64,000 nucleotides of DNA from Escherichia coli (GTDB lineage Bacteria; Pseudomonadota; Gammaproteobacteria; Enterobacterales; Enterobacteriaceae): the NCBI RefSeq assembly GCF_051903065.1, contig NZ_CP178438.1. One strand, given 5' to 3'. The notes under the pieces were generated by a model. That model saw only the letters and a program-made list of their open reading frames with translations, did no database searches and was not told the origin of the DNA. A program made the position numbers and the translations under genes. Shown in pieces: positions 45,342 through 54,869 of this stretch (position 1 is the first letter of the stretch; each line of letters starts with the position of its first letter).

Positions 45342-45858
45342 GGGTGTTCTACCGCAGGGGCGGGGAATTCTCAGTGATATCCATCATCGCATCCAGTGCG
45401 CCCGGTTTATCCCCGCTGGCGCGGGGAACACGTGTGGCACTCTGCGTCTGGTATTAAATCATTCGGTTTATCCCCGCTGGCGCGGGGAACACCCGCCACG
45501 CCGTGCGCATCAACAGATATACGCAGGTTTATCCCCGCTGGCGCGGGGAACACAAACCGAAACACACGATCAATCCGAATATGAGCGGTTTATCCCCGCT
45601 GGCGCGGGGAACACCGAAAAGGCACCGTGCCGGTGACGTTCAATTCCGGTTTATCCCCGCTGGCGCGGGGAACACCGTTTTCACTCACTGGCAATCTCCG
45701 AGCAGAGCGGTTTATCCCCGCTGGCGCGGGGAACACGTGCGAATACCGTGTAAAAAATTAGTGTTATTCGGTTTATCCCCGCTGGCGCGGGGAACACTCA
45801 CGGTAGCGCCACTGCGCGTCGGTGACGGGCGGTTTATCCCCGCTGGCGCGGGGAACAC
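45342..45858 (-). CRISPR. Type I-E CRISPR array: 8 canonical 29-bp repeats plus one degenerate terminal repeat, 8 spacers
   Basis: Repeat on + strand CGGTTTATCCCCGCTGGCGCGGGGAACAC at 45403, 45464, 45525 (first base A), 45586, 45647, 45708, 45769, 45830; 61-bp period; degenerate iap-proximal repeat 45342-45370 matches 19/29; spacers 32 bp; leader at the high-coordinate end, so crRNA is read from the minus strand. Confidence 0.97.
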
Positions 45859-45954
45859 ACTAAGCATACATATCTGTTTTTAAACAAATTTATTCCACAT
45901 CAACAATCTACCAACTAAATTCAAACATTTCCTTATTTTTAAAGAACACATAAC
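45859..45954 (-). promoter_or_regulatory. CRISPR leader (AT-rich, carries the array promoter)
   Basis: 96-bp AT-rich segment between cas2 stop and the leader-proximal repeat. Confidence 0.8.
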
Positions 45955-46248
45955 CTATTGATTATCAACAGGAAGAAAAGAAACCAAACGTAACCCATCC
46001 AAATCCACCGGAATACGTCTGTTTTCTCCCCAGGTCTGAAATTCAAAACCCGACTCGGTATTGGTCACCCAGGCCATCACCACATTTCCGCAACCAGCCA
46101 GTTGGGTAATTTGCTGCCAGATCATCTCCCGAATACGTTTTGATGTATCACCAACATACACACCGGCACGCACTTCCAGTAGCCAGATTGCGAGCCGTCC
46201 ACGTAAGCGCGGAGGGACATTTTCTGTAACAACCACGACCATGCTCAT
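45955..46248 (-). CDS. cas2: Cas2 (type I-E adaptation)
   Basis: 97 aa, [26 protein letters not shown]...; 4-nt overlap with cas1; adjacent to leader. Confidence 0.95.
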
Positions 46249-47168
46249 CCGCCGCGCCCCCGGTGACCACTATCACCCAGCGTTTCAGGTTCAGGGATGG
46301 CAGGCGGTAACATATCCGGCGCGGGTTGTGGTGGTTCAATTTCACCTGCAGCAAGGACTTCCTCAATTAACGGTATTAATTTGCCCGTTAACTTAGTGCT
46401 ACGGAAAATATCGCGACAGGCTAATCTGACTTCTTTATCAGATTCTGCCGGGTGTCTTGCCGCTATTTCAAATGCCTTTGGCACAACCGAATCAAATTTA
46501 ATGATATCGGCTATGTCATAAACAAATGAAAGCGGTTTGCCACTATGAATAAATCCAATAGCGGGCGCATATCCCGCGGCTAATACTGCCGCTTCAGAAA
46601 TACCGTACAGACATGATGTGGCAGCACTGATGCAGCGATTCACAACATCGCCTTTTTCCCAGTCTTTAGGATCGTATTTGCGACCATTCCATTTCACACC
46701 ATATTGTTTCGCCAGTAATGCATAGGTCTGGCGAACGCGGGATCCCTCAATTCCCCGTAGCTGATCCACTGAACGGCGAGCTGGCGGTGGCTCACGAAAA
46801 CGTAATTCATACATTTTGCGCACCACCTTCAGGCGTAGATCTTCCGTTAAAGCCAGCTTTGCCTGGTAGAGTAATTTATCTGCCCGCGCCCCTCCGGGTT
46901 GTCCGGAAGAGTAAACGCGAACGCCCGCTTCACCGACCCAGACCAGCAGTGTTCCCACCGTGGCGGCCAGATGCACCGCCGCGTGGGAAACTCTCGTTCC
47001 CGGTTCGAGCATAATGCAGGCGACCGATCCCACCGGAATGTGCGTGCGGATCCCGGTTTTGTCGATCAGCACGAAAGCGCCGTCCAGTACGTCGATTTGA
47101 CCGTACTGGAGGAAGATCATAGAGGTGCGATCTTTTAACGGGATCGGACTCAGTGGTACAAACGTCAC
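46245..47168 (-). CDS. cas1: Cas1 integrase (type I-E)
   Basis: 307 aa; close to the E. coli K-12 Cas1 sequence as I recall it. Confidence 0.95.
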
Positions 47169-52115: not shown

Positions 52116-52144
52116 CTGTTCCCCGCGTCAGCGGGGATAAGCCC
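52116..52144 (+). repeat. Solitary CRISPR-repeat-like element in the cas3-cse1 intergenic region
   Basis: + strand CTGTTCCCCGCGTCAGCGGGGATAAGCCC matches the crRNA-sense repeat GTGTTCCCCGCGCCAGCGGGGATAAACCG at 25/29 with the stem intact; orientation is opposite to the array; followed by a perfect 10-bp hairpin at 52142-52165 that abuts the cas3 stop. Confidence 0.8.
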
Positions 52145-52169
52145 TGGCGTCATCCGACGCCAGGGCATC

Positions 52170-54869
52170 TCAATCAACCTTGCCAATCAATCCTTCCGTA
52201 GCCGAATACCCGCAGCTTTCGTCATCGGTGACTAAAATCACGTTTGCCATCTCCGGATCTTGCCGTTGTTCAATGCACCACTGCCTGAACGCTTCCCCTT
52301 CCAGTAAAGAAAATTCATCCCGATGTTTTTTCCACCAGCTTCGACGCACTCTGGCAACGCTCATTTCCCATGCGTGAGCACCGCTGGCATAAGGCTTCAC
52401 CACACCGTCAATACAGGTAGCCAGCCACAGGGAAACAGACTCTTCAGCCAGACGTGTCGACAGCTTTTCCGGGAGGTAATCGTTGATATTGGCGGCATAG
52501 CCGGGCCTGAAGTTCAGCATAAACTTTTTAGCCATTGCGCGATCGCAGTAATATTTGCCCACTTGCTCCTGCTCGCTGCGGGCAAATCCTTCCGGCATTA
52601 CCACGTCCTCACCGTAGACGGATTCAATAAGAAGCCGGGCTGCGTGTGGCATCTGAATAGCGCCTTGCTCACGCAATACTCGCTGCGTCAGCCAGATTCG
52701 CCCATGATCGGGGTAGACATATGCGCTGTTACGCATCGCACTACCAAACCATTCGTCACCCGGAGAGTCGTCCCAGACGGGGGCCAGAATCAGCAATTCA
52801 GGAGGGGAACGCTCGTCTTTTCCATCACGTTTTAACTGACCATTAATATCACGAATATGCCGTTGTAATCGCCCCGCTCGCTGGATCAGCAAATCAATGG
52901 GGGCCAGGTCGGAGATCATTTCGTCCAGGTCAATATCCACACTTTGCTCAATTACTTGTGTACAAACAATGACTTGAGATGATCTTTTTAAACTACAATT
53001 TTTACCAAAGCGTGCCAGCGTTTCCGTTTCAATTCGCTGGCGATCGCTAAAAGCAAAGCGGCTATGAAAAAGTGAAAGGCTGGAAGCAGGAATGACGCCG
53101 CGGGCAAGTAACTGACGATAAACCTTAATAGCGTCATCGACAGAATTCCGGATCCAGGCGATGCATTTCCCCTGACTTACCGCTGATTCGATACGCGCAA
53201 TACATTCTTGTTCGCTATGAAGCCAACCCACGCTCACGCTACGCTCAACGTCTTTGCGCGTCGCTACCCGGTGCGAATGCACATCGGATTTCGTGACATG
53301 CGTCAGCCAGGGGTAATCATCCTTTTCTAGGAACGGAGCTTCTTGCTGGCCCTCTGTGCCACGCGCAAAGGCGGCGACAAGTTTGTCGCGCTGCTGTTGA
53401 GATAACGTAGCAGAAAGCAAAATGACGCTGTTTCCGCCACGCACCTGTCGCTCAATCAACCCTTCAAGAATGTACGACATGTAAGCGTCACAGGCGTGGA
53501 TCTCATCAGCCAGCAGGATTTTGTTACTCAACCCCAGAAGCCGCAGATTATTATGTTTAAACGGCATCACTGCCATCATCGCCTGATCCAGCGTGCCGAC
53601 GCCAATTTCAGCCAGTAAAGCCTTCTTGTTACTGTCGGCAAACCAGGCTGCACATCCTTGACTGAACGCTTGTTCATCCGGTTCTTCTGACCCGACTAAA
53701 TCACCGGACCAGAGTGATTCATTAAAGCGTTCCATTAATGTACGGGCGCTGTGTGCCAGCACCAGGCTGGGGCGGGATTCTGGCGAAAAGAAAGCAAGCC
53801 AGGTTTTGACCAGCCGATCGTACATGGCATTGGCCGTTGCCATTGTTGGCAGGCCAAAAAACAAACCCTGAGCTTTATTCTCAGCCATCAACCTGTGCGC
53901 CAGGATAAGCGCCGCTTCTGTTTTACCTGCGCCAGTCACATCTTCCAGAATAAATAACTGTGGCCCTGGCTGGCTGATATCCAGATCCAGTACCTTTTGC
54001 TGTAATGGTGTCGGGTGCTCAATAAAAGGAAACAGCGTATTAATTCCGGTGAAAGGTGCGGTTTCTGCTTTTGGAGGAAAGACGGTTAAGGCGTTTTGAG
54101 CCTGAACTAAAGTTTTCTGCCAGTAATCTTTAATATTCATTGTCTGTGCGACGCGTGGAAAAAATCGCGTTGACGAACCCGTCCAGTCTGCGAGTACGAC
54201 TGTTGCAGAGATATACCAGGAAAGTTGTTTTAAAAGTTCAACGCCCTCGTCATCATCCCAGAATGTGGGAATCTCTATGAGCGGAAACAGTGACTTGATT
54301 TCAAGGAGAAAATCTCGTGCGGCAGCTTTGTCTTCAGGCAGGAAATTATCCAGTTCATCAATACGGTCAGGGGGCCGACCATGATGCCCGGTAGTCATGG
54401 GCATCCACATCGCTATTACACGTTTAAGTTTGCGAGTAGAGAGTGAAGAGGCAGGAAGCAATTCTTCGCATTCACTTAAATAATGATGCCACAACCAGTA
54501 GCCCAGCGTTGAATGAGAGATCTTTTCGTAATTCTTTCTTGCGCCTTCCGGAACCTTGAGTTGTGGGTGCAGGTAAAGTTGCTGAAATGAGCGGGCAAAT
54601 TTTCCAATATCGTGCCAGCACAACAACCAGGCGAAAAATTGAGCCGCCTGTTCCTTGTCAGAAATCCCTAATTGACGAAAATAATCAGCCAGCCCGAAGC
54701 AATTTCTTTTAACCATTAAATAGCCCATCGCGGCCACATCCAGCGAATGCCAGCAAAGAAGGTGATAGTCGTCACCCCCTTCTTTCTCGTCGCGTCGGGT
54801 TTTTCCCCAGAAATCAAAGAAAGTCACAATATTTTTATCCTTCAGTAAACTTAAAGGATATTTACGCAT
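52170..54869 (-). CDS. cas3: Cas3 HD nuclease / SF2 helicase (type I-E)
   Basis: 899 aa; N-terminal HD motifs (LLCWHSLDV, WHDIGKF), helicase Walker A GAGKTEAAL and DEIHA box; highly AT-rich upstream region. Confidence 0.92.
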   Translation of the reverse strand: MRKYPLSLLKDKNIVTFFDFWGKTRRDEKEGGDDYHLLCWHSLDVAAMGYLMVKRNCFGLADYFRQLGISDKEQAAQFFAWLLCWHDIGKFARSFQQLYLHPQLKVPEGARKNYEKISHSTLGYWLWHHYLSECEELLPASSLSTRKLKRVIAMWMPMTTGHHGRPPDRIDELDNFLPEDKAAARDFLLEIKSLFPLIEIPTFWDDDEGVELLKQLSWYISATVVLADWTGSSTRFFPRVAQTMNIKDYWQKTLVQAQNALTVFPPKAETAPFTGINTLFPFIEHPTPLQQKVLDLDISQPGPQLFILEDVTGAGKTEAALILAHRLMAENKAQGLFFGLPTMATANAMYDRLVKTWLAFFSPESRPSLVLAHSARTLMERFNESLWSGDLVGSEEPDEQAFSQGCAAWFADSNKKALLAEIGVGTLDQAMMAVMPFKHNNLRLLGLSNKILLADEIHACDAYMSYILEGLIERQVRGGNSVILLSATLSQQQRDKLVAAFARGTEGQQEAPFLEKDDYPWLTHVTKSDVHSHRVATRKDVERSVSVGWLHSEQECIARIESAVSQGKCIAWIRNSVDDAIKVYRQLLARGVIPASSLSLFHSRFAFSDRQRIETETLARFGKNCSLKRSSQVIVCTQVIEQSVDIDLDEMISDLAPIDLLIQRAGRLQRHIRDINGQLKRDGKDERSPPELLILAPVWDDSPGDEWFGSAMRNSAYVYPDHGRIWLTQRVLREQGAIQMPHAARLLIESVYGEDVVMPEGFARSEQEQVGKYYCDRAMAKKFMLNFRPGYAANINDYLPEKLSTRLAEESVSLWLATCIDGVVKPYASGAHAWEMSVARVRRSWWKKHRDEFSLLEGEAFRQWCIEQRQDPEMANVILVTDDESCGYSATEGLIGKVD

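Follow-up and report, generated by a model that had tools for sequence, protein, structure and literature searches.

The DNA considered here is a stretch of 64,000 nt from Escherichia coli (contig NZ_CP178438.1, assembly GCF_051903065.1), referred to as the window throughout, and coordinates are positions within it unless another locus is named. Between 45342 and 54869 its minus strand carries, in this order, cas3, cse1, cse2, cas7, cas5, cas6e, cas1, cas2, a leader and a CRISPR array, and every component of the full set listed in the initial annotation lies where it had been placed. We regard it as almost certain that this part of the chromosome encodes an intact type I-E adaptive immune system of E. 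coli, built from a gene set other than that of K-12, together with a mini-array of the CreR/crlRNA kind in the gap between cas3 and cse1.

Gene content and variant of the locus

The eight cas genes are listed below with their scores against NCBIfam profiles, for which the curated cut-offs were applied.

45955-46248, minus strand: cas2e, 97 aa; TIGR01873, 131 bits (cut-off 33)
46245-47168, minus strand: cas1e, 307 aa, GTG start; TIGR03638, 379 bits (cut-off 216)
47165-47815, minus strand: cas6e, 216 aa, start as in RefSeq; TIGR01907 over its full length, 291 bits (cut-off 45)
47797-48543, minus strand: cas5e, 248 aa; TIGR01868, 160 bits (cut-off 69)
48554-49609, minus strand: cas7e, 351 aa; TIGR01869, 448 bits (cut-off 178)
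49621-50160, minus strand: cse2/cas11e, 179 aa; TIGR02548, 101 bits (cut-off 28.5)
50157-51719, minus strand: cse1/cas8e, 520 aa, start as in RefSeq; TIGR02547, 611 bits (cut-off 70)
52170-54869, minus strand: cas3, 899 aa, an HD nuclease fused to a superfamily 2 (SF2) helicase; helicase core TIGR01587, 227 bits (cut-off 102)
within 52170-54869, minus strand: HD domain of cas3; TIGR01596, 90 bits (cut-off 43)

Gene content and family membership can be read directly from these matches. Each gene is read in one uninterrupted frame that ends in its only stop, as had been claimed of all eight, and every protein falls into its type I-E family when searched against profiles, above the curated cut-offs of NCBIfam and in agreement with PADLOC, the second profile set, in which the Cas3e profile matches cas3 at 954 bits. 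Residues expected of working enzymes are in place: Cas1 keeps E141, H208 and D221 relative to its K-12 counterpart, Cas3 has the motifs GAGKT (Walker A), DEIH, SAT and QRAGR, and Cas6e has the histidine that aligns to H20 of K-12 CasE. For two genes the longest open reading frame (ORF) is too long; cas6e begins at 47815 and not at 47953, while cse1 begins at 51719 in RefSeq and its frame could begin at 51725. The 4-nt overlaps reported previously hold at three junctions only (cse1/cse2, cas6e/cas1 and cas1/cas2). Elsewhere, cas5 and cas6e overlap by 19 nt, cse2 and cas7 are 11 nt apart, cas7 and cas5 10 nt, and cas3 and cse1 450 nt; cas7e, cas5e and cas6e follow contiguously downstream of cse2 on the minus strand. 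The position between iap and cysH was also correctly recognised, with the correction that the cas3 side is occupied by hok/sok before cysH is reached, iap lying on the other side.

A stretch of 10.2 kb spanning this locus is 100% identical in three complete E. coli genomes, 23CRST027, 23CRST031 and ECNB21-M121, the last of which bears an IS421 insertion in its copy, and at least 80% of the stretch is present in 2,112 of 5,426 complete E. coli genomes. Since the proteins score far above their cut-offs and the DNA recurs unchanged in three genomes, the pattern cannot be put down to chance. RefSeq gives the order iap-CRISPR-cas2e-cas1e-cas6e-cas5e-cas7e-casB-casA-cas3-hok-cysH for the identical DNA of 23CRST027; the system is therefore already known, and the initial annotation was right to call it a described system rather than a new one.

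That annotation had also called the arrangement canonical for E. coli, which is true of the gene order and less so of the genes, because they are not the K-12 set. The K-12-specific equivalogs are missed by Cas3 (NF007248, 431 bits against a cut-off of 569) and by CasA (NF007247, 101 bits against 576). Amino acid identity to K-12 is only 21-29% for Cas3, Cse1, Cse2, Cas7, Cas5 and Cas6e, compared with 83% for Cas1 and Cas2 (82.5% for Cas2), and DNA comparison with K-12 from cas6e through cas3 detected no similarity. K-12 MG1655 (cas3-casABCDE-cas1-cas2, CRISPR-1) does share the architecture, the neighbourhood and a homologous leader, its repeat differs by 1 nt, and it has a mini-array at the same place and in the same orientation. 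On these comparisons the locus represents a second, common, non-K-12 type I-E variant of E. coli, which has been labelled var. B-8552 (PMC12736100).

With the common form of this variant, represented by strain MB06173 and about 2,100 complete genomes, the window shares gene order, the site between iap and cysH, repeat, leader and protein families. From cse1 through cas2 the two are 97-99.8% identical in nucleotide sequence, whereas cas3 is only 92.4% identical, and the 450-bp gap with its mini-array stands in place of a 97-bp gap without one. Foreign origin was considered as a reason for the roughly 95% overall identity to most E. coli and was rejected, the drop coming mainly from cas3 and the replaced gap. 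As a CRISPR-Cas locus, then, there is nothing new here; what is specific to the strain is that its array is short, with a phage target identifiable for one spacer, that its cas3 has diverged and that it retains a rare mini-array.

Array, leader and spacers

The array and its leader occupy the end of the locus beyond cas2.

45342-45370, minus strand: terminal (leader-distal) repeat, degenerate, 19 of 29 positions matching the consensus, in register with the 61-nt period
45371-45858, minus strand: array of eight 32-nt spacers alternating with eight 29-nt repeats; 'direct_repeat CRISPR' in RefSeq on identical DNA
45859-45954, minus strand: leader, 96 nt, AT-rich, between cas2 and the first repeat

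The anatomy is that of type I-E, with partly palindromic repeats of 29 nt, spacers of 32 nt and an AT-rich leader on the cas2 side. Seven of the eight repeats (45403-45858) are identical and one has a single mismatch; on the plus strand the repeat reads CGGTTTATCCCCGCTGGCGCGGGGAACAC. The degenerate terminal repeat starts at 45342, precisely the position from which the initial annotation counted the locus, and the spacers run from the oldest, S8 (45371-45402), to the newest, S1 (45798-45829). No difference separates the leader from that of E. coli MB06173, and conserved blocks appear when it is aligned to the leader of K-12 CRISPR-1. Across the array, the plus strand has a 126-aa ORF at 45503-45883 in which the motif IPAGAGN/YPRWRGEH recurs; this is an artefact of reading through CRISPR repeats and not a gene.

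ATG is one of the functional protospacer-adjacent motifs (PAMs) of type I-E systems. The major capsid gene of lambda-like phages and prophages of E. coli contains a match to spacer S5 (45554-45585) at 30 of 32 positions; this protospacer is preceded by an ATG PAM, and the mismatches fall only at positions 24 and 27, outside the seed. As the sole spacer with a known target, S5 is also the one for which a PAM of the AAG or ATG type can be read. For S2, 26 nt match a prophage tail-sheath gene exactly. Queries made of spacers only returned one phage target (S5) and no true plasmid target, no spacer has a self-target within the window, and queries with the whole array against phages and plasmids were discarded, their matches being mainly to repeats of other arrays. 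Comparison of the spacers with those of other E. coli, another check proposed at the outset, found S8 in about 4,600 genomes, K-12 and BL21 derivatives included, and S1 and S5 in the arrays of other strains.

By extension from the well-studied type I-E mechanism, the array would be transcribed from the leader on the minus strand and Cas6e would cut each repeat after its hairpin. Cse1, Cse2, Cas7, Cas5 and Cas6e would then assemble with the 61-nt CRISPR RNA (crRNA) into Cascade, which would find protospacers flanked by AAG or ATG and recruit Cas3 for degradation of the DNA, while Cas1-Cas2 would insert new spacers beside the leader.

The mini-array between cas3 and cse1

The 450-bp gap between cas3 and cse1 had been taken as empty. 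It holds a degenerate mini-array, psiR1-psiS-psiR2, on the plus strand and hence antisense to the cas genes, which we interpret as regulatory, and a site within the same gap is its predicted target.

52061-52089, plus strand: psiR1, degenerate repeat giving the 5' handle; 13 of 29 positions match the repeat, 6 of 8 in the handle, and it has a hairpin of its own
52090-52115, plus strand: psiS, 26-nt pseudo-spacer AGTTAGTGAGATACAAAAATTGGTTC
52116-52144, plus strand: psiR2, near-canonical repeat; 25 of 29 positions match overall, 19 of 21 in the 3' part that forms the Cas6e hairpin
52141-52166, no strand assigned: perfect 11-bp hairpin lying between psiR2 and cas3 and abutting the stop codon of the latter
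51992-52015, minus strand: predicted target of the mini-array RNA; PAM ATG at 52015-52013, then a 21-nt protospacer at 52012-51992

The existence of the mini-array and of a matching site is a direct observation. The handle of psiR1 is ATTAACCA where the array repeat has ATAAACCG, and homologous elements resembling psiR1 occur in 11 other loci. Positions 1-21 of psiS match the target except at positions 6, 12 and 18, whereas the best run in 300 shuffles of the gap was 10, and the target is the only such site in the whole window. In R-loops formed by type I-E Cascade every sixth base of the crRNA is flipped out and unpaired. With every sixth base out of play, the site amounts effectively to a perfect match of 18 pairs, ending 5 nt short of the guide's end. 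The lack of pairing at every sixth base has also been noted for type I-F1 (PMC10120712).

Elements of this description have been published. Liu et al. described a mini-CRISPR, "creR", in the type I-E locus of Salmonella enterica, the pseudo-spacer of which has 15 nt in common with an AAG-flanked site upstream of casA; CreR represses PcasA about 8.6-fold in a Cascade-dependent manner, and repression is relieved by competing crRNAs or by AcrIE8, while a K-12 "creA" appears in their plasmid list (bioRxiv 10.1101/2023.03.10.532045). Shmakov et al. found repeat-like sequences beside cas3 in 25-29% of loci of types I-E, I-D and I-F1; among bacterial type I-E loci, about 19% have mini-arrays, and the one they describe in the E. 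coli type I-E locus lies between cas3 and cas8e, runs in the opposite direction to cas3 and has an AAG-flanked target at the H-NS site by Pcas (PMC10120712). The gap of the window shows the features by which crlRNAs are recognised, since a spacer-like sequence stands between two repeat-like ones in an intergenic region of the cas genes, apart from the array, and the complementarity of psiS is partial, seed-proximal and directed at a PAM-flanked site upstream of the effector operon. Among cas autoregulators, the window element belongs to the published CreR/crlRNA class; it is new in sequence and unannotated in RefSeq, within a known class.

The likeness extends to the position in the cas3-cse1 gap, the order psiR1-psiS-psiR2 antisense to cas3, the 5' handle in psiR1 and 3' hairpin in psiR2, and the toleration of mismatches at sixth positions in a seed-proximal match to a PAM-flanked site upstream of cse1. 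There are also differences. The pseudo-spacer is 26 nt here and 32-33 nt in CreR/crlRNA, and the sequences of pseudo-spacer and target are not the same; the PAM is ATG instead of AAG; the target lies 293 bp upstream of cse1 instead of about 140 bp; and the complementarity is longer, with 18 paired positions within 21 nt. A length of 26 nt equals 32 minus 6, which we infer would fit a Cascade with one Cas7 fewer. Cas6e-dependent maturation and Cascade-dependent repression are on record for the Salmonella homologue and are predictions for the window element.

Expression, processing and repression are set out here as inferred steps. A promoter-like sequence on the plus strand, TTAACT-17-TATCAT (52007-52035), may drive transcription of the mini-array from a point about 20 nt ahead of psiR1. 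Cleavage by Cas6e after the hairpins of psiR1 and psiR2 would release a crRNA-like guide with a 26-nt pseudo-spacer, which would load into Cascade and direct it to the ATG-flanked site of partial complementarity that lies 293 bp upstream of cse1. The target overlaps weak sigma-70-like matches on both strands, and Cascade bound there would cover the -35 element of the plus-strand promoter and a weak minus-strand promoter-like site, TTAATG-16-AATAAT. The match would be too short to recruit Cas3; because the PAM-distal end would stay unpaired, Cas3 would not be licensed and repression is the likely outcome, bearing on the promoter of the Cascade (cse1) operon and probably also on that of the mini-array itself. 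Titration of Cascade by crRNAs or anti-CRISPRs would relieve the repression. If the mechanism holds, cas expression would be tied to the amount of free Cascade in the cell. The 11-bp hairpin next to the cas3 stop is probably a two-way terminator or a stabiliser of the 3' end.

We compared the corresponding gaps of twelve distinct loci, comprising the window, E. coli strains 135, N3, TUM14771 and K-12, Klebsiella spallanzanii, Atlantibacter, Chimaeribacter, S. enterica subsp. houtenae and three further metagenome or NCBI loci. The related gaps share a layout in which the cas3 stop is followed by psiR2, psiS and psiR1 in antisense; the hairpin beside the stop is present in close relatives and not in S. 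enterica subsp. houtenae or K-12. In each locus the pseudo-spacer is different, with a length of 19-33 nt (32 nt in K-12 if the degenerate downstream repeat is counted), and in 12 of 12 the site in the same gap that psiS matches best has AAG or ATG beside it, the interruptions of the match falling mostly at sixth positions. Between the window and E. coli 135, position 15 of psiS and position 15 of the target have both changed from A to T. Changes occur in the hairpins as well: the psiR2 stem has a compensatory change from C-G to U-A in strain 135 and Atlantibacter, and 6 of the 11 pairs of the 11-bp hairpin are changed on both sides across genera. Taking both hairpins in six sequences, 7 pairs carry double changes, an observed covariation that none of 500 shuffles reached. 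On this comparison of loci, psiS and its target evolve together across all twelve.

Two of these loci have peculiarities of their own. In S. enterica subsp. houtenae (L045, 3899-4338) cas3 is inverted relative to cse1 and is separated from the mini-array by a RelE/Xre toxin-antitoxin pair. In E. coli TUM14771 (L046, 796-3496) cas3 is annotated as a frameshifted pseudogene, and mini-array, target and the 32-aa ORF discussed below are intact.

Within E. coli the long gap is rare. Its 406-bp core is complete in 6 of the 5,426 complete genomes, and in ten more, with other pseudo-spacers (of the N3 or TUM14771 type), the shared part is limited to the hairpin and psiR2 or to the first 100 nt, which brings to 16 the genomes that retain the hairpin and psiR2. 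A contiguous 97-bp cas3-cse1 junction without a mini-array is found in 2,424 of the 5,426; this junction (L004, 9604-9700) and the middle of the 450-bp gap are not homologous. In Escherichia albertii and one other species of the genus the gap measures 89 bp and likewise has no mini-array. This makes the window strain one of very few E. coli with the common variant that still carry a mini-array of the CreR type, and a natural contrast to the 97-bp majority for asking what RNA-guided autoregulation of cas genes contributes. Together with its relatives it offers an unusually clean guide and target signature, consisting of PAM conservation, free sixth positions and compensatory changes in psiS and target.

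The same rarity can be read differently, as can the divergence of psiR1 and the strong hairpin directly after the cas3 stop: the repeats in the gap might be the decaying remnant of an old array, or a plain cas3 terminator, with no function as a guide RNA. A match of only 13 of 29 positions to the repeat and the absence of the element from the 2,424 genomes with the same cas variant would suit such a history. A remnant would not, however, be expected to retain, beside a PAM, a match that varies together with the pseudo-spacer in 12 loci, to show a double A to T change between close relatives, to have its mismatches specifically at every sixth position or to show covariation in the psiR2 stem, and a homologue has been verified experimentally in Salmonella (bioRxiv 10.1101/2023.03.10.532045). 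The covarying pseudo-spacer and target and the compensated hairpins argue against a dead remnant, and we consider the idea very improbable.

Several observations nonetheless weigh against our view of the locus as a working immune system regulated by its mini-array. The promoter assignments are weak consensus matches (8-9 of 12 positions), and their positions are the weakest link of the proposed mechanism; a strict scan for promoters and terminators gave 12 against 9.9 and 16 against 12.2 in shuffles, which is no enrichment, and yielded no confident Pcas, and a relaxed promoter scan found only matches at 8 of 12 positions. Because psiR1 is strongly degenerate and its stem non-canonical, cleavage by Cas6e at that point is putative, and for type I-E a pseudo-spacer of 26 nt is not the standard length. 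The element is dispensable, since more than 99% of the E. coli that have this cas variant carry no mini-array. With regard to the array, the phage and plasmid collections contain no perfect match to any spacer, the array is short and seven of its eight spacers are without an identified target; recent activity is therefore putative. Finally, the K-12 system is silenced by H-NS (literature cited in PMC10120712), and the AT-rich character (41-42% GC) of the 5' end of cas3 in the window and of the region upstream of it suggests H-NS silencing of the window locus as well.

These last points could be taken further, to the reading that the locus is structurally intact and functionally silent, a conserved passenger in this strain. 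Slow turnover of the array would accord with it, S8 being found in about 4,600 genomes and other spacers being common to unrelated strains, as would the want of a perfect phage or plasmid match and the H-NS silencing documented for K-12 (references in PMC10120712). Against this, none of the eight genes is interrupted by a stop, their catalytic residues are conserved, selection on the mini-array and its target is visible, and the S5 protospacer has a correct PAM. Silence of the locus in this strain seems to us possible, though less likely than not.

Small open reading frames in the gap and neighbouring features

Between the predicted target and cse1 the gap contains one small ORF, and related loci have a different one at the same position.

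51763-51903, minus strand: 46-aa ORF MLSIFLLQLVLSLLSKRQTKFDFRITFNVFSFIRLRLSLQLNLKIW, a candidate gene with an AAGAGGA Shine-Dalgarno sequence and a hydrophobic N-terminus, between the target and cse1
L046 (TUM14771) 3811-3909; L011 2513-2611; L014 3845-3943; L048-L052 4001-4099: 32-aa ORF of related loci

The 32-aa ORF (MEEK..RLFCRLMIRLGNKLSVSFQLSVR) has a Shine-Dalgarno sequence and occurs in E. coli TUM14771, K. spallanzanii, Atlantibacter and metagenome loci, about 53 nt upstream of cse1 and downstream of the target of the mini-array. It has the marks of a coding sequence, in that 18 of 30 differences fall at third codon positions and 14 codons differ synonymously against 8 non-synonymously. 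Among 1.84 billion protein representatives it forms only four clusters, always at this position; NCBIfam, PADLOC and PHROGs hold no family for the peptide, and tblastn against plasmids returned chance matches only.

Such ORFs raise the question of whether the mini-array might be the antitoxin half of an addiction module of the CreTA/CrePA type, silencing a toxin gene in the gap, for which the 46-aa ORF would be the candidate, so that loss or inhibition of Cascade would harm the cell. CreTA (Haloarcula, type I-B) and CrePA (Acinetobacter, type I-F) have, like the window, a mini-array in the gap between cas3 and the gene for the large subunit and a small ORF between the target and the effector operon, and the layout of CrePA in the Acinetobacter I-F locus is the same (10.1101/2024.01.05.574328). 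The position of the 46-aa ORF and its good Shine-Dalgarno sequence speak for the idea, as does the clearly coding 32-aa ORF at the same place in related loci. Yet the 46-aa ORF has no homologue in a word-indexed database of 5.8 billion clustered proteins and no family in NCBIfam or PADLOC (a match in PHROGs was non-significant, E = 0.2), and RefSeq does not annotate it. It is 100% identical in the only diverged relative, which leaves no test of selection, and E. coli N3 has no ORF at the position. Membership of the 32-aa family was rejected by tblastn and by profile search; in hmmsearch, the 32-aa profile scored at best 0.2 bits against the six-frame translation of 51700-52180, and the window contains no member. 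The 46-aa ORF is also dissimilar to CreP (103 aa, with a KilAC domain) and is a candidate toxin by analogy only. We think it very doubtful that the mini-array serves as an antitoxin here. The broader proposition, that the long gap is a CRISPR-repressed toxin module of enterobacterial type I-E loci, with a 46-aa peptide in the window and a 32-aa peptide in Klebsiella, Atlantibacter and some E. coli, has an equally slim chance of being correct; if it were true, the 97-bp junction in more than 99% of E. coli would mark an escape from addiction.

Regulation of the cas genes by a CreR/crlRNA-type guide remains our preferred interpretation of the gap. A phage-borne mimic of its pseudo-spacer (a "Cracr") was sought in the phage collection, and none was found.

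On the far side of cas3 the following features precede cysH.

55062-55214, minus strand: hok, encoding a 50-aa Hok/Gef protein, between cas3 and cysH
55199-55356, minus strand: sok, Rfam match of 112 bits

Together they form an intact type I toxin-antitoxin module, where K-12 has a sokX remnant only. A scan of the window against Rfam at the gathering threshold returned sok alone, with no CRISPR or other RNA family at the locus. Well away from the cas genes, at 5117-5504, a unit of 96-98 nt occurs in four copies in tandem; these are 66-98% identical, contain palindromes like those of repetitive extragenic palindromic (REP) sequences and are probably an intergenic repeat cluster of the bacterial interspersed mosaic element (BIME) or REP kind.

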